32,000 bases of DNA from an uncultured Clostridia bacterium (GCA_934177485.1 CAKPPF010000001.1:324105-356104); one strand, 5' to 3'; counted from the first letter of the stretch, positions 3,494-24,775 are shown. Numbers and translations are program-made. Notes: generated by a model from the sequence alone, not told the origin.

Positions 3494-3967
3494 ATGGCAG
3501 GGGCATTATTTAATAAATTTTGTGAAGTGTTTGGAGTAAATCAAAGAGAAGAAGACGAAGATGAAGAATATATAGATGAAGAAGTTACTAGTGAAGATCC
3601 AGAAGAAGATGAAGTAGAAGATAAAAGATTCTTTAATATAAATAGAAAAAAAGTTGTGAATATGCCACAAACTCAACAAGTTAGAATGGTTATATCTCAA
3701 CCTACAACATTTGAACAAGCAGAAGAAATTTGTACATATTTAAAAAATAGAAAATCTGTAATAGTTAACTTAGAATATGTAAATAAAGATGTCGCAAGAA
3801 GAATAGTAGATGTTATGAGTGGAGCTGTTCATGCTTTAGATGGACATATACAAAAAATATCTAATTCTATATTCTTAATTGCACCAACATATTATGAGAT
3901 TTCTACAGAAATAGCAAGAGATGAAATAAAAAATAAACTTTCAGTTTCTTGGTTGAAAAATGGATAA
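3494..3967 (+). CDS. sepF: Cell division protein SepF
   Basis: AGGAGG RBS. Acidic N-terminal linker, then the conserved SepF core (VISQPTTFEQAEEICTYLKNRKSVIVNLEYV...IFLIAP). divIVA lies next to it. Confidence 0.85.
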   Translation: MAGALFNKFCEVFGVNQREEDEDEEYIDEEVTSEDPEEDEVEDKRFFNINRKKVVNMPQTQQVRMVISQPTTFEQAEEICTYLKNRKSVIVNLEYVNKDVARRIVDVMSGAVHALDGHIQKISNSIFLIAPTYYEISTEIARDEIKNKLSVSWLKNG

Positions 3968-3984
3968 TAATATTATATTATTTA

Positions 3985-4012
3985 TAGGGCGGACAAGATG
4001 CTGTTCGCCCTA
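3985..4012 (+). terminator. GC-rich hairpin between sepF and divIVA (partial terminator or processing site)
   Basis: TAGGGCGGACA-agatgc-TGTTCGCCCTA forms an 11-bp stem with one G.U pair, followed by TTGTTT. It stands out in AT-rich DNA. Confidence 0.4.
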
Positions 4013-4043
4013 TTGTTTAACAAACAGAAAGGATGAATTAATT

Positions 4044-4516: not shown

Positions 4517-4562
4517 TGCTTTTTATATAGTTAAATGCTAAAATTAAAATGAGGTGATACTA

Positions 4563-5030
4563 ATGAGAACAATGGGAAATTATTTAATAATAATGTTGTC
4601 AGTAATATTATTTATTTTTAGATTAATTGTTACAATAACAACAGTTCTAGGTGTTGATTTTATGATACAAACAATAAATACTAATTATGAAATAATACTG
4701 CTATTTATTACTATAATATCAATTATTTTAATGACTAAAAATAAATTAATAGGACCAATAATATTTACTGCTGCTTCATTAGCTTATTATGGACCAGATT
4801 TATTGTCTAGAGTTATGGTTTCAGGAGCTATAAGCGCAGAGAGTGCCACACAAATCGTATGTTCTGTATGTTGTTTGTTAATACCAATATTTTCGTTTTT
4901 CTTAACAGCAGCTGCAAAAGCTCAAGAGAAAAAACCTGTAGACAAGAAAACAGATTTTTATTACAAAACAGATAGATACGATAGAAAATATGATGAAAGA
5001 GCAGACAGAAATAACTATAGAACTTTATAA
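4563..5030 (+). CDS. Hypothetical integral membrane protein
   Basis: ATG 6 nt after GAGGTG. Four hydrophobic helices and a basic, Tyr/Asp-rich tail. I recognise no family. Confidence 0.55.
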   Translation: MRTMGNYLIIMLSVILFIFRLIVTITTVLGVDFMIQTINTNYEIILLFITIISIILMTKNKLIGPIIFTAASLAYYGPDLLSRVMVSGAISAESATQIVCSVCCLLIPIFSFFLTAAAKAQEKKPVDKKTDFYYKTDRYDRKYDERADRNNYRTL

Positions 5031-5040
5031 GAAATTAATT

Positions 5041-5118
5041 TACAAGAAAAGTGGCTTTGTCACACTTTTCTTCTCTCAGATTTGAGTTTCCGAATGAAAT
5101 GAGGAAATATCAAAGGCA
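5041..5118 (-). ncRNA. Candidate small RNA encoded inside repeat copy A
   Basis: On the minus strand, TGcTATAAT (5125-5133) is followed by the M2 hairpin and the M1 stem with a TTTTCTT tail. The ends are predicted, not measured. Confidence 0.3.
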
Positions 5119-5205
5119 ATAGCTATTATAGCATATTTTGTTGAATAGAAAAATCTTCGATTTTTCCTATTCAACAAAAAGGGGCCACTATTTATACAGT
5201 GACCC
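5046..5205 (+). repeat. Mosaic hairpin repeat, copy A (modules M1-M2-M3-M4')
   Basis: About 94 percent identical by eye to copy B over roughly 135 nt. Contains GAAAAGTG..CACTTTTC, GATTTGAG-TTTCC-GAATGAAATGA-GGAAA, and TTGAATAGAAAAATC-TTCG-GATTTTTCCTATTCAA. Confidence 0.9.
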
Positions 5206-8515: not shown

Positions 8516-8545
8516 TTGACAATATGATATTTTTTGTGCTATAAT
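8516..8545 (+). promoter_or_regulatory. SigA-type promoter of the rplU-rpmA operon
   Basis: TTGACA (8516-8521), 18-nt spacer, TGcTATAAT extended -10 (TATAAT at 8540-8545). Confidence 0.7.
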
Positions 8546-8551
8546 TACAAA

Positions 8552-8640
8552 ATGTAACCGCATAATTCAAGGTAATAAAAGTCTAGTTAAGTTTAGATAC
8601 CTAAAGTTTAAGGTTAGCGAGTTTGCAAAGAGGGAGGTGC
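8552..8640 (+). promoter_or_regulatory. Probable ribosomal protein L21 leader (5' UTR of rplU)
   Basis: About 100 nt of untranslated leader between a strong promoter and rplU, at the position of the Firmicute L21 leader. I could not verify the structure by eye. Confidence 0.4.
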
Positions 8641-8646
8641 TTTTGT

Positions 8647-9003
8647 ATGTACGCAGTTATAGAAGCATGTGGAAAACAATACAAAGTAACTAAAGGAGAT
8701 GTAGTATTTTTCGAAAAATTAGACGTAGAAGAAGGTAAAAAAGTAACTTTCGACAAAGTTGTTTTACTATCTAATGATGGAAAAGTAGAAGTTGGAGCTC
8801 CTTATGTAAAAGGTATAAAAGTTGAAGGCAAAGTAGTTGCTCATGGTAAAGGTAAAAAAATAATTGTTTTCAAATATAAAGCTAAAAAGAATTATAAAAG
8901 AAAACAAGGACATAGACAACCTTATACTAAAGTTGAAATAACAGCTATAAAACTTCCAGCAGCTAAAAAAGAAGTAGCAGCTGAAGAAAAAGCAAATGCT
9001 TAA
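8647..9003 (+). CDS. rplU: 50S ribosomal protein L21
   Basis: ATG at 8647 after [20 protein letters not shown] start, [13 protein letters not shown]. Confidence 0.95.
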
Positions 9004-9361: not shown

Positions 9362-9440
9362 GGGTAAGAAAAGTGGCTTCGCCACACTTTTCTTCTCGCC
9401 GATTTGAGTTTCCGAATGAAATGAGGAAATCTCAAAGGCA
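9362..9440 (-). ncRNA. Candidate small RNA encoded inside repeat copy B
   Basis: On the minus strand, TGcTATAAT (9447-9455) is followed by the M2 hairpin and GAAAAGTGTGGC-gaa-GCCACTTTTCTT. The ends are predicted. Confidence 0.3.
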
Positions 9441-9523
9441 ATAGCGATTATAGCATATTTTGTTGAATAGAAAAATCTTCGATTTTTCCTATTCGACAAA
9501 AAAGGTAGGCACAAGACCTACCT
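9368..9523 (+). repeat. Mosaic hairpin repeat, copy B (M1-M2-M3-M4)
   Basis: Same module order as copy A. M4 is AGGTAGG-cacaaga-CCTACCT at 9503-9523. Confidence 0.9.
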
Positions 9524-9549
9524 CTACAAATTGCACGCAATGGGTAAAT

Positions 9550-15391: not shown

Positions 15392-15571
15392 ATGAGTAAT
15401 AACCAAAAATCATCACATATACAGTGCGACAACAATTGCGATCGCTGCTATATGTACGAGGACTGTCCTCATTTTGAGGATCACAAATCCGAACGTAACG
15501 GCTTGATTAAACGGTTAAAAAAACTGTTTAAAAAAAAGGATAAAGTTATAAGGACTTATCCTTTCAAGTAA
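15392..15571 (+). CDS. Small Cys-rich basic protein, 59 aa (below the ORF-track cut-off)
   Basis: AGGTGA 9 nt upstream. Translation is MSNNQKSSHIQCDNNCDRCYMYEDCPHFEDHKSERNGLIKRLKKLFKKKDKVIRTYPFK. It has its own promoter and terminator. G+C is visibly higher than in the neighbouring genes. Confidence 0.5.
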   Translation: MSNNQKSSHIQCDNNCDRCYMYEDCPHFEDHKSERNGLIKRLKKLFKKKDKVIRTYPFK

Positions 15572-15657
15572 GAGCTAATGCCTTTGACATTTCCTCATTT
15601 GATTCGGAAACCCAAATCGGCAAAAACAAAGGGTGACTTAGGTCACTCTTTGTTTTT
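15572..15657 (-). repeat. Mosaic hairpin repeat, copy C (M2-M1, reverse), which also acts as terminator of the small ORF
   Basis: GCCTTTGACATTTCCTCATTTGATTCGGAAACCCAAATCGGC, then AAAAACAAAGGGTGAC-ttag-GTCACTCTTTGTTTTT. Confidence 0.85.
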
Positions 15658-15684
15658 GTATATATGTCAATTGGTGCCAAATGG

Positions 15685-18688: not shown

Positions 18689-19432
18689 ATGAATATTTCT
18701 TTAGATAGTTTAGAAAATCTTATAAAAAGTGAAATTAATAAAGGATATATCATTCACGTTAATAAAAGCCAAGAAGAAAAAATAAACATTGAAGTAACAG
18801 GTGAAAAAGATATTACTGTTTATGTGCCAAAACAAATGGTTAAAGATACTATTAATTTAGTTCAAGATTGTTATAAAGAAGCTGTATCCAAAGGTACAAT
18901 TAAATTAAATACAAAACAAGGCGTAGAAAAACAAATTGAAACCATTTTTAATATGCGTGATATTAAAAAGCGTTTAAAACAAATTCCAGACATGAAACAG
19001 GAAAAATGTGACGAAAAAAATGAAGAAGCATATGAACATATAATGGAAATAATAAATATGCGTGATATGGATATGTACATAAAAAAATATGAAGATTACT
19101 TAGATAACATAAAAAGTGCAAGAACAATTAAAAAAAATAAAAGAATGAAAAGAAAAATAAAAAGTAGTGGTATGCTTTCAAAAGATGATATAATAAGTAT
19201 TTTAATTTCAATAAAGAATAAAAGCGGTACTTTTATAAATAATTTAAAAAAACATAAAAAAATAATTATAGCTGTAATTTTAGCATCTGTTGCAACAACT
19301 TGCGGTGTCAAAAGCATAGCTAGTAAAGAAATAAAAGATAATACCATGCCATCTATTACTGAAGAGTCTACAAAAGAAGAAAATGATTTTCAAGTAATAA
19401 ACACACCTACTAAAGATTATACTGAAAGATAA
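18689..19432 (+). CDS. Hypothetical single-pass membrane protein
   Basis: AGGAGA RBS 27 nt after the previous stop. Same architecture as its neighbour (N-domain, KKNKRMKRKIK linker, TM IIIAVILASVATTCGV). Ends in DYTER. Confidence 0.6.
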   Translation: MNISLDSLENLIKSEINKGYIIHVNKSQEEKINIEVTGEKDITVYVPKQMVKDTINLVQDCYKEAVSKGTIKLNTKQGVEKQIETIFNMRDIKKRLKQIPDMKQEKCDEKNEEAYEHIMEIINMRDMDMYIKKYEDYLDNIKSARTIKKNKRMKRKIKSSGMLSKDDIISILISIKNKSGTFINNLKKHKKIIIAVILASVATTCGVKSIASKEIKDNTMPSITEESTKEENDFQVINTPTKDYTER

Positions 19433-19450
19433 GAACAAATAAATTTTATG

Positions 19451-19564
19451 TTACTCTTTTTGTTATCGTCCGATTTAAATTTTTGACTGTAAAGAGAAAA
19501 TCCCAAAGGAAATGCATTTTGCTAAGTTTAATATAGTAGGAAATAAGAAATTTCTTACTATATT
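19451..19564 (+). repeat. Mosaic hairpin repeat, copy D (partial M1, variant M2, M5)
   Basis: CCGATTTAAATTTTTGACTGTAAAGAGAAAATCCCAAAGG matches the copy G variant. M5 is AATATAGTAGGAAAT-aagaa-ATTTCTTACTATATT. Confidence 0.75.
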
Positions 19565-19583
19565 AAAAATTTTGAAAAAAATG

Positions 19584-19612
19584 TTGCAATATAAAATATA
19601 AAATGGTATTAT
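19584..19612 (+). promoter_or_regulatory. Predicted promoter upstream of pyrG
   Basis: TTGCAA (19584-19589), 17-nt spacer, TGgTATTAT (TATTAT at 19607-19612). Confidence 0.45.
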
Positions 19613-19620
19613 AGTAATAT

Positions 19621-19671
19621 AGATTTAAAAAAAACCCCGTTTTTCGGAAAGTATTTTTTAAATCTATTTTT
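19621..19671 (+). terminator. Hairpin plus T-run just downstream of the predicted promoter (possible pyrG leader attenuator, or terminator of the upstream operon)
   Basis: AGATTTAAAAAA (19621-19632) pairs with TTTTTTAAATCT (19654-19665) around an inner CCG-ttttt-CGG, followed by ATTTTTT. Confidence 0.4.
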
Positions 19672-19871
19672 TATATAGTAGGAATTTTGGAGAAATTTCC
19701 TACTATATAAAATGCTATAATCGCTATTGCCTTTGAGATTTGCTCATTTCATTTGCAAACTCAAATCGGCGAGAACAAAGGGCGACTAAAGTCGCTTTGT
19801 TGTTATATAGCAAAATCGAAGATTTTCTAAAACATAATTTAGTATTGTAGGGGCAGGTCTTGTGCCTGCCC
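19672..19871 (-). repeat. Mosaic hairpin repeat, copy E (M5-M2-M1-degenerate M3-M4, reverse)
   Basis: The 102 nt at 19700-19801 match 21574-21675 with a single mismatch. M4 is GGGCAGG-tcttgtg-CCTGCCC at 19851-19871. Confidence 0.9.
19728..19804 (+). ncRNA. Candidate small RNA encoded inside repeat copy E
   Basis: TGcTATAAT (19713-19721), then hairpin GCCTTTGAG-ATTTGC-tcatttcattt-GCAAA-CTCAAA-tc-GGC, then ACAAAGGGCGAC-taaa-GTCGCTTTGTTGTT. The ends are predicted. Confidence 0.3.
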
Positions 19872-19918
19872 ACTAAAAGTGAAACGAAGTTTTATATTTA
19901 TTAGTTTAGGAGGAGTTT

Positions 19919-21520
19919 ATGAACACAAAATACATATTTATAACAGGTGGAGTAGTATCAGGACTTGGAAAAGGAATAACTGCTGCATCATTAGGAAGAT
20001 TATTAAAAAATAGAGGATATAAAGTAACAATCCAAAAGTTTGATCCATATATAAATGTTGACCCAGGAACAATGAGCCCATATGAACATGGCGAAGTTTT
20101 TGTTACAGATGATGGAGCAGAAACAGATTTAGACTTAGGACATTATGAAAGATTTATAGATGAAAGTTTAACTAGAAATTCTAGTATTACATCTGGAAGA
20201 ATTTATCAAAATGTTATAAATAAAGAAAGAAGAGGAGATTATTTAGGAAAAACTGTCCAAGTAATTCCACATATAACAAATGAGATAAAACAAAACATAT
20301 ATAGCTTTGAAGATGAAGATATAGATATTGTAATAACAGAACTAGGAGGAACAGTTGGAGATATAGAAAGTTTGGCATTTTTAGAGGCAATACGTCAAGT
20401 AGGAATAGAAAAAGATGCAGAAGATGTAATGTATATTCATGTAACACTTCTCCCATACATAACAGGCTCAAATGAAATAAAATCAAAACCAACTCAGCAC
20501 TCTGTAAAAGAGTTGCAATCTTTAGGAATAAAACCAGACATATTGGTATGTAGAAGTGATATGCCAATACCAGATGGAATAAAGGACAAACTATCATTAT
20601 TTTGCAATGTAAAAAAAGAAAGTGTTATTGCAAATTTGACTGCAGATAATTTATATGCAGTACCTTTAATGCTAGAAAAACAAGGGTTAGCATTGCAAGT
20701 TTGTAAACACTTGAAACTTGCTAATATTGAACCACATAATGAAAAATGGGACGAAATGATAGGAAATATTAGAAAAGTAAAAGACGGAGAAGTAACAATA
20801 GGAATAGTTGGAAAATATGTAAAACTTGAAGATTCATATTTGTCTGTAACCGAAAGCTTGCATCATGCTGGTTTTGCAAATAATGTAAAAGTAAATATTA
20901 AATATATAGACTGTGAAACTGTTACAAGAGAAAATGCAAAAAGAATTCTTGGAGAACTAGATGGAATAATAGTTCCAGGTGGTTTTGGAAATAGAGGAAT
21001 AGAAGGAAAAATAAATACAGTAGAATATGCAAGAACAAATAATGTACCATTTTTAGGAATATGTTTAGGAATGCAAATGGCAGTTGTTGAATTTGCAAGA
21101 AATGTATTAGGGCTTTCAGATGCAAACTCAGAAGAATTTGATGAAAATTCAAAAAATCAGGTAATACATATTATGGATGAACAAAAAAATGTAGACAAAA
21201 AAGGTGGAACAATGAGACTTGGAAAATATCCATGTATATTAAAAAAGGATAGTCTAGCATATAAAGTTTATGGTAAAAAGGAAATATCAGAAAGACATAG
21301 ACATAGATTTGAGTATAACAATGACTATAGGGAAAAATTAGAAAATGCAGGCTTAATTTGTTCTGGAACATCACCAGATGGAAAATTAGTTGAAATAGTA
21401 GAAATTCCATCATTAGATTATTTTATAGCAGGACAATTTCATCCAGAATTTAAATCTAGACCAGATAAACCATCACCATTATTTGTTGGATTGGTTAAAG
21501 CTGCAAAAGAAAAAGTTTAA
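19919..21520 (+). CDS. pyrG: CTP synthase
   Basis: [22 protein letters not shown]-terminus, glutamine amidotransferase GICLGMQ, 533 aa. Confidence 0.97.
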
Positions 21521-21546
21521 AAAAGCGACTTTGAGTCGCTTTTTTT
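21521..21546 (+). terminator. Rho-independent terminator after pyrG
   Basis: AAAAGCGAC-tttga-GTCGCTTTTTTT. Confidence 0.8.
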
Positions 21547-21705
21547 ATATAGTAGGAAATTTCTCCGAAATTCCTACTATATAAAATGCTATAATCGCTA
21601 TTGCCTTTGAGATTTGCTCATTTCATTCGCAAACTCAAATCGGCGAGAACAAAGGGCGACTAAAGTCGCTTTGTTCTATAGCAAAAATCTTCGATTTTTG
21701 CTATA
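21546..21705 (-). repeat. Mosaic hairpin repeat, copy F (M5-M2-M1-M3, reverse)
   Basis: Near-identical to copy E. M3 is the perfect hairpin TATAGCAAAAATC-TTCG-GATTTTTGCTATA. Confidence 0.9.
21602..21678 (+). ncRNA. Candidate small RNA encoded inside repeat copy F
   Basis: TGcTATAAT (21587-21595), then the M2 hairpin and GAACAAAGGGCGAC-taaa-GTCGCTTTGTTC. The ends are predicted. Confidence 0.3.
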
Positions 21706-21749
21706 GAAAAAAACACTCTTTCACCGTTCGGAAAAACGGTAAAAGAGTG
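21706..21749 (-). terminator. Strong rho-independent terminator on the minus strand
   Basis: Read on the minus strand: CACTCTTTTACCGTT-tttccg-AACGGTGAAAGAGTG followed by TTTTTTT. Confidence 0.75.
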
Positions 21750-21754
21750 AGAGG

Positions 21755-21910
21755 TTACTTTAAGATACACTTCGTATCTATGGTATGCCATAAGGCGAGT
21801 TTAACTGGTGGAGTATAGCACTCACTTCCTCTAAAGCCAAACCAGGTTGCAACAAATATTATTGCAACAAAAATATATATAATAGTAGCCTCCTCGGAGA
21901 ACCACCACAC
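21755..21910 (-). other. Orphan transcription unit: small hydrophobic peptide (type I toxin-like) or structured small RNA
   Basis: A frame is open from 21922 or 21910 to the TAA at 21755-21757. It encodes ..WWFSEEATIIYIFVAIIFVATWFGFRGSECYTPPVKLALWHTIDTKCILK. A GAGGAGG lies inside it, and no ATG, GTG or TTG follows the predicted transcription start. Confidence 0.4.
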
Positions 21911-21912
21911 AT

Positions 21913-21941
21913 ATATTAACATAAAGCAAAGGAAATGTCAA
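21913..21941 (-). promoter_or_regulatory. Strong SigA-type promoter on the minus strand
   Basis: On the minus strand: TTGACA (21941-21936), 17-nt spacer, TGtTAATAT (-10 at 21918-21913). Confidence 0.6.
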
Positions 21942-22052
21942 TATTTGGTTATACTTTTTATCTCATAGCTACTATTATTGTTCTAAATTTAATTTTTAAG
22001 AATATAATTATATATATAAATGTGAATAATATGTGAATTTAGAATAAAGATA

Positions 22053-22081
22053 TTGACATTTAATATAAAAGGGTATATTAT
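22053..22081 (+). promoter_or_regulatory. groESL promoter
   Basis: TTGACA (22053-22058), 17-nt spacer, TATTAT (22076-22081), immediately upstream of CIRCE. Confidence 0.7.
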
Positions 22082-22082
22082 T

Positions 22083-22416
<334 letters not shown>

Positions 22417-24176: not shown

Positions 24177-24425
24177 ATGACAAACACAAATATTACAAAC
24201 TTTAGAAAAGATATATATGAAATGTTAGAACAAACAATAAAATATAATGAGCCTATAAATATATCAACCAAAAATGGAAATGCTGTTGTTTTATCAGAAG
24301 AAGACTATAATGGGCTAATAGAAACTGTTTATTTATCTAGTATTCCTAAAATGAGAGAAAAATTGATAAAAGGAAAAAATGTACCTTTAGAAGATTGCGT
24401 AGCAGAAGATGAGGTGGAGTGGTAA
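24177..24425 (+). CDS. Type II antitoxin, Phd/YefM family
   Basis: AGGAGG RBS, 82 aa. ITNFRKDIYEMLEQTIKYNEPINIS...AVVLSEEDYNGLIETVYL is the YefM fold pattern. Directly abuts the toxin gene. Confidence 0.85.
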   Translation: MTNTNITNFRKDIYEMLEQTIKYNEPINISTKNGNAVVLSEEDYNGLIETVYLSSIPKMREKLIKGKNVPLEDCVAEDEVEW

Positions 24426-24692
24426 ATGTACAAAATAGTATATACTAAAACTGCAGTAAAAGATATTCCACATTTAAAAGCCTCTAATTTAGATAAAAAA
24501 ACATTAGCATTAATTGAAATTTTAAAAGAGAATCCGTTTCAAAATCCACCACCATATAAAAAACTTGTTGGAGATTTACAGGACTTATATTCGAGAAGAA
24601 TTAATATAAAACACAGATTAGTATACCAAGTATATTCAACAGAAAAAACAGTAAAAATAGTTAGTGTGTGGACACATTACGAAAACATATAA
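24426..24692 (+). CDS. Type II toxin, YoeB/Txe family mRNA interferase
   Basis: 88 aa. YSRRINIKHRLVYQV...VKIVSVWTHYE is the YoeB C-terminal signature. Confidence 0.85.
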   Translation: MYKIVYTKTAVKDIPHLKASNLDKKTLALIEILKENPFQNPPPYKKLVGDLQDLYSRRINIKHRLVYQVYSTEKTVKIVSVWTHYENI

Positions 24693-24695
24693 ATA

Positions 24696-24775
24696 GAACA
24701 AAGCAACTTTATATCGCTCTTTGTTCTTGCCAGATTTGAGTTTTCAACTGTAAGGAGATAATCTCAAATGGCGTA
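24696..24775 (+). repeat. Mosaic hairpin repeat, copy G (M1, variant M2)
   Basis: GAACAAAG..CTTTGTTC, then CCAGATTTGAGTTTTCAACTGTAAGGAGATAATCTCAAATGG. Confidence 0.8.

Follow-up and report, generated by a model that had tools for sequence, protein, structure and literature searches.

A mosaic and probably mobile intergenic repeat with a predicted promoter and terminator in uncultured gut Clostridia

Introduction

The BOX elements of Streptococcus pneumoniae have the architecture boxA-(boxB)n-boxC, and the Correia elements (CREE/NEMIS) of Neisseria possess 26-bp terminal inverted repeats (TIRs), a TA target duplication, an IHF site and promoters at or across their ends. Among the small RNA (sRNA) families, the csRNAs of streptococci, LhrC of Listeria and Qrr of Vibrio comprise two to seven copies, each of which occupies a stable locus and has a promoter that depends on a regulator. 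Here we describe a repeat in a 32,000-nt stretch of DNA from an uncultured Clostridia bacterium (GCA_934177485.1, CAKPPF010000001.1:324105-356104), the whole of which is referred to below as the window. A first-pass annotation of the window had read four copies of this repeat as complete sRNA genes, and had named a mobile element with its own promoter as the last of several options for their function. All four loci prove to be copies, intact or nearly so, of a repeat not described before, which is about 125-140 nt long in its full form. This repeat is probably a mosaic, mobile or formerly mobile intergenic element that combines an extended -10 promoter lacking a -35 hexamer, a 5' hairpin and a bidirectional terminator.

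Small repeats that bear promoters or terminators are already known, including Correia, ERIC and REPIN elements and the putative mobile promoters (PMC3575422) as well as BOX (PMC3049150), and the present repeat would work in a similar manner. Correia elements in particular have been cited as promoter-bearing mobile elements (PMC3575422). The repeat studied here resembles Correia elements in its size class (roughly 100-150 nt), in its promoters, in roles as terminator or processed hairpin and in the rewiring of neighbouring genes, all of which are predicted in the present case; however, the 26-bp TIRs, TA duplication, IHF site and end promoters of Correia elements are absent from it, and the host phylum differs. 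Putative mobile promoters were described as highly similar non-coding sequences upstream of unrelated genes (Matus-Garcia, Nijveen, van Passel 2012; PMC3575422), and they are comparable to this repeat in occurring within and between genomes, sometimes with RNA structure. They constitute a descriptive class rather than a family, whereas the present repeat also faces convergent genes and carries its own predicted terminator. BOX, RUP and SPRITE of S. pneumoniae were judged to be parasitic, and not to have dedicated host functions, on grounds similar to ours (PMC3049150). BOX and this repeat are both interspersed intergenic elements of a single Firmicute lineage with a modular or mosaic build, many copies and strong hairpins, and they are further alike in the lack of a transposase of their own and, as predicted for this repeat, in slow transposition and effects on co-transcribed genes (PMC3049150). 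There is no sequence similarity between the two. To our knowledge, BOX has not been described with a built-in promoter followed by a terminator, nor is placement flush with a native terminator a BOX feature.

REP, BIME, REPIN and PATE elements share with this repeat the nature of extragenic palindromes at gene 3' ends, common between tandem or convergent genes and rare between divergent ones, as well as mosaic clusters and the lack of TIRs and target duplications. Unlike this repeat, REPs are 20-40-nt G+C-rich units that are tied to a RAYT gene and have no promoter, while PATEs share their ends with a resident insertion sequence (IS); no such gene or parent was found for this repeat in the loci examined. 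The csRNA, LhrC and Qrr genes are similar in that a promoter, a stem-loop and a terminator follow each other within 80-100 nt in several near-identical copies, but this repeat has many copies per genome, shows gain, loss and decay, and is predicted to be used in mRNA leaders. Having no TIRs, target duplication, sequence similarity or Rfam model, it appears to lie outside BOX, Correia, ERIC, REPIN and the mobile promoters, and non-autonomous IS200/IS605-type elements may provide the closest mechanistic analogy.

Results

Copy number and host range

A repeat search with alignment identified seven copies (A-G) of one element in the window, with cores at 5041-5121 (A, minus strand), 9363-9443 (B, minus), 15576-15658 (C, plus), 19430-19514 (D, minus), 19725-19805 (E, plus), 21599-21679 (F, plus) and 24693-24775 (G, minus). 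In copies A, B, E and F the modules are arranged in the order P0 palindrome, A-run, TGCTATAAT box, spacer CGCTATT, first hairpin (hp1, conserved and bulged) and second hairpin (hp2). Among bacterial genomes represented by one genome per species, the exact core CTCATTTCATTNGNAAACTCAAATC was identified at 51 places in about 12 metagenome-assembled genomes (MAGs) or genomes, all of them MAGs that carry the label uncultured Clostridia or Clostridium sp. CAG:452; two draft MAGs contain 13-14 exact matches each. It was also found in 66 human-gut metagenome contigs, one of which (L114) is the window segment 19699-21597; here and below, L-numbers denote loci fetched from MAGs or genomes and from human-gut metagenome contigs. 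A covariance model built on hp1 and hp2 recovered 67 + 74 = 141 copies, comprising all seven window copies and 134 beyond the window, and grouping of the copies by their flanks left about 71 independent sites. The repeat is restricted to a clade of uncultured low-G+C gut Clostridia (CAG:452 and relatives). An initial assignment to Fusobacterium, prompted by the AT-rich DNA and groESL, was rejected in view of this distribution. The core pattern is absent from viral contigs, and there was no BLAST match among plasmids and phages.

In at least 12 cases a contig terminates no more than about 100 nt from the core, which is typical of repeats at which assemblies break. Four metagenome contigs (L054, L088, L107 and L115) contain the same core together with the purA 5' end, each with a different upstream flank, owing either to real rearrangement through recombination among copies or to chimeric joining of contigs at the repeat.

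Rfam gave no match in the whole window at gathering thresholds and, at E<=10 over 19400-22150, nothing of note over hp1; the hp2 of copies E and F produced two chance-level matches, to U11 (16.3 bits, E 8.9) and psRNA14 (20.5 bits, E 3.4). A CRISPR repeat, tracrRNA, omega RNA, retron and T-box were considered and rejected, as there is no array, no neighbouring cas, tnpB or reverse transcriptase gene and no Rfam signal. A hidden peptide was likewise rejected, the only candidates on either strand of the element being ATG-CTA-TAA and ATG-AAA-TGA.

Placement relative to genes

None of the 71 sites is located inside an open reading frame (ORF). The upstream neighbour is co-oriented with the element at 54 sites and opposite at 13, and of 67 downstream neighbours 41 have the orientation of the element and the remaining 26 converge on it. 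Intergenic regions of divergent genes are nearly avoided (two sites), and 11 sites lie antisense between tandem genes. P0 abuts the T-run of a co-oriented hairpin of unique sequence at 21 of 60 sites under a strict automatic rule and at about 35 of 60 when judged by eye, and this hairpin with its T-run is the predicted native intrinsic terminator of the co-oriented gene. At 19 of the 26 convergent sites the stop codon of the facing gene is within 20 nt of the element 3' end, and hp2 at convergent sites is the predicted terminator of that gene, as exemplified in the window by copies A and D. At six further sites hp2 is only 11-28 nt from a start codon and its 3' arm enters the ribosome-binding site (RBS; TTTGTTAGGAGG...ATG), the genes being purA, proS, glyQS, thyA, an ftsW/rodA-like gene and a radical-SAM gene. 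Since hp2 runs into the RBS, no efficient forward stop is expected at these six sites.

Gain, loss, inversion and decay between relatives

Comparisons between relatives whose flanks are 87-98% identical revealed gain, deletion, inversion and decay of copies. L006 holds a 125-nt copy where L009 has a solo hp2-like hairpin and L033 a different native terminator (flanks 95-98% identical), L009 retains no more than an internally deleted remnant where L025 has a full copy, and at the same gene end L009 and L025 contain copies in opposite orientation. The element is therefore dispersed and polymorphic for presence or absence at orthologous sites, which is what defines a mobile interspersed repeat. 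Orthologous copies have decayed in L004 and L049 (81-82% identity over the element, 57% over the box); the purA-proximal copy is 98-99% identical between genomes, as compared with 90-95% for its mostly coding flanks. Turnover and decay combined with conservation at some sites are characteristic of small interspersed repeats. The pair L039/L045 had been considered as a second empty-site comparison and was rejected, since synteny simply ends there.

Mosaic modules

P0 is an AT-rich perfect palindrome of two types, a (TATATAGTAGGAAAT...) in copies E, F and D and b (GTTGAATAGGAAAAATCGAAGATTTTCCTATTCAAC) in copies A and B. Sixty-six of the 73 P0 palindromes lie 5' of a core, and they hardly ever occur apart from one; those away from cores include one solo P0, one internally deleted copy and two 3' P0b-type palindromes. 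For hp2, at least four unrelated sequences were distinguished (types a and b, the L048 form and the L013 form), each of which keeps an A-rich 5' flank and a T-rich 3' flank. P0, the -10 box, hp1 and hp2 are reshuffled among copies, P0a for instance being combined with hp2b, and some copies (F, L025, L085) have a second P0b-like palindrome 3' of hp2.

The non-palindromic centre of P0 is inverted between window copies (19669-19712 vs 21543-21586, TTTCTCA vs TGAGAAA) and even between orthologous copies (L029:~4000-4040 vs L038:~3510-3550), which suggests that the centre is flipped by way of a hairpin or cruciform, or that the template is switched at the palindrome. In a set of deletion forms (L023:6102-6182, L024:4455-4536, L036:5134-5215 and the L066/L067/L079 group) the left half of P0a is joined directly to the hp1 loop, with loss of the -10 box and the hp1 5' arm. 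The P0a centre (TTTCTCATTTCC) and the hp1 apex (TTTCCTCATTTC) have a common motif, which probably mediated the deletion and hints that the two hairpins are related.

Promoter-like box

All four boxes described in the first-pass annotation are present as exact TGCTATAAT, at 5125-5133 on the minus strand (copy A), 9447-9455 on the minus strand (B), 19713-19721 on the plus strand (E) and 21587-21595 on the plus strand (F); in copy B the context TATGCTATAAT also fits the TRTG -16 motif. Taken by itself, the box motif shows no enrichment in the window, where nine TGNTATAAT were counted against 5.8 +/- 2.6 expected from shuffles; there is also a fifth TGCTATAAT, at 8537, but it forms part of a perfect TTGACA-18-TATAAT promoter that is unrelated to the repeat. 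It is the fixed register that is non-random, the box always standing 7 nt (CGCTATT) before the GCC of the hairpin. Across genomes the box is exact at 43 of the 71 independent sites and recognisable at about 57, and is conserved as well as hp1. Given its spacing, the predicted start falls at the first pair of hp1 (about 19727-19729 in copy E). Variants of the -10 hexamer concentrate at the tolerant third position (six of nine), a suggestive clustering among variants that may share descent. A two-hexamer promoter scan does not call the element boxes in the window. Promoters of the TGnTATAAT type can work without a -35 hexamer in Firmicutes, and activity of the corresponding promoter of the element is plausible.

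The existence of a promoter-less subfamily, also proposed earlier, was confirmed in that copies C, D and G are without the box, D and G having the ACTGTAA-type loop, CTC(C/T)TTACAGT. Promoter-less copies with intact hairpins are C, G, L052:1226 and L008.

Native promoters of the genome possess a -35 hexamer, unlike the repeat. One is located at 8516-8545 on the plus strand (TTGACA-18-TGCTATAAT), upstream of the ORF at 8623-9003, and another at 22053-22112 on the plus strand (TTGACA-17-TATTAT), where it is followed by a CIRCE-like inverted repeat (TTAGCAGTC-N9-GACTGCTAA) and then groES.

Hairpins

A bipartite hairpin had been expected 7 nt downstream of each box. This is the case for copies B, E and F, which fold into both hairpins with minimum free energies of -26 to -29.5 kcal/mol and z scores of -3.4 to -5.0, but not for copy A, the hp1 of which is broken by substitutions (GAT for GAG, CTGAG for CGGCG; z -1.4), so that the intact copies are only three of the four. 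Copy D is fully degenerate in the folding analysis. For the next module, a stem-loop with a T-rich tail had been described; a terminator-like hairpin is indeed present, but the presumed tail is the 3' arm of a longer stem, as it pairs with an upstream A-rich arm (GAACAAAG...CTTTGTTC; AAGAAAAGTG...CACTTTTCTT). The longer stem of E and F reads GAACAAAG-GG-GCGAC/GTCGC-CTTTGTTC, that of A and B reads AAGAAAAGTG-T-GGC/GCCACTTTTCTT, and hp2 is therefore a 12-13-bp A/T-flanked hairpin. Its core stem is short, with five G/C-rich pairs, and a T-tract is flush with the stem in the forward direction only. The hp2 of A, B, E and F scored terminator-like on one or both strands in a simple scan, and hp2 has the form of a bidirectional intrinsic terminator, as which it is predicted to act.

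Hairpin conservation was judged by pair counting, in which 89.5% of cells were paired as compared with 83.5% in shuffles; RNAalifold on the model-derived alignment gave no structure and was uninformative. The compensatory changes noted earlier were confirmed, both for the G/C swap of hp1 and for the differences that extend over several pairs of hp2, and 11 pairs have changed on both sides, including the hp1 C-G to G-C swap. What they do not provide is an RNA-strand signal. The pair deviations in hp1 amount to about 20 G-U and about 24 A-C, and as A-C is as frequent as G-U, the covariation of hp1 does not single out the plus-strand RNA; the hairpin is equally well preserved whether it is taken as DNA or as RNA of either strand. 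There is almost no variation in the hp1 loop.

Copies in the window

In copy E, P0a (19667-19712, plus strand; TTTTATATAGTAGGAAT...ATTTCCTACTATATAAAA) is directly 3' of a T-run, hp1 (19729-19770) consists of GCC-TTTGAG-A-TTTGC, an 11-nt loop and GCAAA-CTCAAA-TC-GGC, and hp2 is of type a (19773-19802; GAACAAAGGGCGAC-TAAA-GTCGCTTTGTT) and terminator-like on both strands, with the pyrG start 114 nt downstream. Copy F, on the same strand, has a P0a (21541-21586) that is inverted at its centre relative to copy E and abuts the T-run of the pyrG terminator (21519-21547), followed by hp1 (21603-21644), hp2 of type a (21647-21676) and a P0b-type 3' palindrome (21677-21705; TATAGCAAAAATCTTCGATTTTTGCTATA), the optional 3' module that is also present in L025 and L085. 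Copy B, on the minus strand, contains P0b (9462-9497; GTCGAATAGGAAAAATCGAAGATTTTTCTATTCAAC) 3' of a hairpin with a T-run (T6), the TTTCC/GGAAA version of hp1 (9398-9439) and hp2 of type b (9366-9395; AAGAAAAGTGTGGC-GAA-GCCACTTTTCTT), which is terminator-like on both strands and faces the 3' end of rpmA (L27). Copy A, also on the minus strand, has a P0b palindrome (5140-5175), a damaged hp1 that is no longer the minimum-energy fold (5076-5117) and hp2 of type b (5044-5073), which starts about 14 nt past the stop codon of the convergent ORF 4554-5030.

Copy C (15576-15658, plus strand) consists of hp1 and hp2 without P0 or -10 box. Copy D is degenerate (19430-19568, minus strand), as P0a is kept, the -10 box is missing and hp1 and hp2 have decayed; it abuts the stop codon of ORF 18689-19432. 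Copy G (24693-24775, minus strand) is promoter-less, has the CTCCTTACAGT loop variant and lies next to yefM/yoeB. The genes around the window copies are all housekeeping genes (L27, MutS, AsnB, CTP synthase, GroES/EL, YefM-YoeB).

Other elements in the same spacers

Copy C is preceded at a distance of 5 nt by a 59-codon ORF with an RBS (15392-15571, plus strand) that encodes a small Cys-rich peptide (MSNNQKSSHIQCDNNCDRCYMYEDCPHFEDHK...). Type II toxin-antitoxin genes adjoin some copies: yefM/yoeB (24177-24692, plus strand) lies beside copy G, and toxin paralogues that are ParE-like, a label based on protein sequence with no family scan, flank one copy on both sides in L005 (2621-2936 and 3645-3960); L010 and L011 are further loci with toxin-antitoxin genes next to copies.

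A second repeat family, a short, G+C-rich, REP-like hairpin starting with GTAG, often adjoins the main element. In the window it is located at 9504-9527 (minus strand) and 19848-19872 (plus strand), and the two copies, GTAGAGGTAGG-TCTTGTG-CCTACC and GTAGGGGCAGG-TCTTGTG-CCTGCCC, show compensatory stem changes. Other GTAG hairpins were found at L014:1175-1203, L014:6617-6643, L025:6882-6908, L033:5094-5121, L056:5181-5223, L085:676-706 and L089:11268-11305, and these hairpins may indicate a RAYT-type system in these genomes.

A candidate non-coding RNA of about 200 nt is located between copy F and groES (21706-21941, minus strand). It has a TTGACA-17-TAATAT promoter with TG (21941-21913), a strong 16-bp terminator with T7 (21749-21714) and a predicted fold of -64 kcal/mol (z -5.3). 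The candidate contains no long ORF and was matched neither by Rfam, even at E<=10, nor by any of the fetched loci.

Discussion

The proposal of four dedicated sRNA genes is not sustained, as there are many intergenic copies per genome, copies have been gained, deleted, flipped or left to decay, modules are reshuffled and hp2 runs into RBSs. The mobile element with its own promoter, which had been mentioned last, agrees with the copy number, placement, turnover and reshuffling. The anatomy had been read correctly, namely an extended -10 box, a hairpin at the predicted 5' end and a terminator-like hairpin within a unit of about 75-80 nt, and since conservation of this anatomy extends well past the window, intact copies could plausibly yield a short transcript. 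The most fitting view of the repeat is that of selfish or neutral DNA, often co-opted as promoter and terminator, and not that of a trans-acting sRNA regulon.

According to this interpretation, the element has spread to, or been copied into, gene 3' regions, typically right after the T-runs of native terminators and in the orientation of the terminated gene. By re-terminating a convergent gene, hp2 could render such insertions nearly harmless. The promoter would fire, and with nothing downstream, as for copies A and B, the promoter and hp2 would give rise to a hairpin RNA of about 75-80 nt (~78 nt). At purA-type sites, where hp2 abuts the RBS, the element would instead supply the promoter and a structured 5' leader of the mRNA. 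Copy E, 114 nt before pyrG, possibly acts as promoter and leader; this is less likely for copy F, located 456 nt upstream of groES, which has a promoter of its own and a CIRCE-like inverted repeat. Since hp1 would form the extreme 5' end of the transcript, it may have a stabilising role there. As for mobilisation, our guess is a mechanism like that of non-autonomous IS200/IS605-type elements (PATEs), an analogy suggested by the fact that TIRs and target duplications are lacking, that the hairpins lie subterminally and that copies are placed in a specific orientation just 3' of a short T-rich target.

Several observations weigh against a mobile, promoter-bearing repeat. The terminal inverted repeats of a classical MITE (a class that includes Correia and RUP elements) are absent, the 5' end (TATATAGTAGG... 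or GTTGAATAGG...) being unrelated to the 3' end (...GTCGCTTTGTTC), and there is no target-site duplication, another MITE feature, when the filled site of L006 is compared with the empty sites of L009 and L033, the 18-nt repeat seen there being part of hp2 itself and not a short duplicated target. No partner transposase was found among the multi-copy ORFs in about 270 kb of four assemblies, which were ParE-like and PBP5 only, nor any larger P0-bounded element among the loci examined. The presence/absence comparisons that underlie mobility could also be produced by recombination between repeats, and selection on RNA function or gene conversion could explain why some orthologous copies are more conserved than their coding flanks. 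With respect to the promoter, the sequence shows no -35 hexamer at the element boxes (zero to two of six matches at 16-18-nt spacing), and the persistence of the promoter-less subfamily means that the promoter is not needed for persistence. Downstream genes might be expressed by read-through from upstream and not by the element. In L033 there is no room for a promoter between the ftsW-like gene and its upstream terminator, which implies that read-through expression is common in these compact genomes, and a lack of room for another promoter is consequently no proof that the box is used.

It is conceivable, though in our estimation unlikely, that the repeat is a dedicated multicopy family of trans-acting sRNAs, in which each intact copy is a gene for an RNA of about 78 nt, targets (mRNAs or a protein) are bound through the conserved 11-nt loop (UCAUUUCAUUC) or the stem, and dosage depends on the number of copies. 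Such a family would account for the order of box, hairpin at the predicted +1 and terminator-like hairpin that is kept at 43-57 of 71 sites, for the replacement of hp2 by unrelated sequences that still form a hairpin with A-rich 5' and T-rich 3' sides, for the T-tract flush with the stem in the forward direction only, for the near-invariant hp1 loop, for the orthologous copies that exceed their coding flanks in conservation, and for copies A and B, which have no gene to drive. However, 13-14 exact-core copies per draft MAG and seven in 32 kb are far above the copy numbers of known sRNA families, relatives differ by presence or absence, orientation flips and neutral-looking decay, promoter-less copies persist, and hp2 enters the RBS of housekeeping genes at six sites. 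Nor do the hp1 deviations (~20 G-U vs ~24 A-C) reveal a strand signal, the compensatory C-G to G-C swap alters the only CCUC-like motif, and some copies appear to be used as mRNA leaders. A related possibility, to which we give a still lower chance, is an RNA-producing selfish element with many self-promoted hairpin RNAs of about 78 nt per genome, in which the RNA itself is functional. The RNA might take part in terminator-targeted propagation of the element, either RNA-guided or reverse-transcribed, which would explain both the kept promoter and the copies flush against co-oriented terminators, as for group IIC introns; alternatively, an abundant RNA might titrate a host protein in these reduced-genome gut Clostridia.

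At the other extreme, the repeat could be a purely DNA-level transposable element, the probability of which we consider to be as low as that of the sRNA family. P0, hp1 and hp2 would then be single-stranded DNA hairpins for a trans-acting HUH/Y1 transposase (IS200/IS605 or RAYT), and the TGCTATAAT box and hp1 would be leftovers of the transposase promoter and 5' untranslated region of a parent IS, with the RNA having no role. The lack of TIRs and target duplication, the subterminal hairpins, the orientation-specific insertion right after a T-run, the equal maintenance of hairpins on either strand, the palindrome centres that flip between orthologous copies, the REP-like GTAG hairpins in the same spacers and the persisting promoter-less subfamily are all compatible with this scenario. 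On the other hand, a search of about 900 kb of loci found no tnpA, tnpB or RAYT gene and no full-length parent, the box has been conserved to the same degree as the hairpins, and the sequence of hp2 varies, unlike a transposase recognition end. The least probable explanation in our view is a host-selected cis-regulatory cassette, that is, a terminator-insulated promoter and leader of many housekeeping operons, in which hp1 binds a global regulator or RNA-binding protein and thereby modulates termination at hp2 (attenuation). It is favoured by the co-oriented next gene at 41 of 67 sites, the six sites within 28 nt of a start codon (purA, proS, glyQS, thyA, ftsW-like, radical-SAM), the high conservation of the purA copy and an hp1-hp2 layout resembling a leader followed by an attenuator, but 26 of 67 sites face a convergent gene, 11 are antisense between tandem genes, the downstream genes have no common pathway, and many copies have decayed or been deleted.

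For these gut genomes, the repeat marks assembly break points at which chimeric joins may arise, and it would inflate computational sRNA censuses of the organisms concerned. It probably supplies or reshapes expression signals of purA, proS, glyQS, thyA and possibly pyrG. In a lineage that has never been cultured, the element combines a predicted promoter, 5' hairpin and bidirectional terminator in one compact unit that is portable by nature. Should the short RNA prove to be abundant and functional, the copy number of this bacterial RNA family would be unusually high. Provided that promoter and terminator act as predicted, the repeat would be another case of regulatory signals spreading as selfish DNA, and would offer a ready-made expression part for low-G+C Firmicutes.

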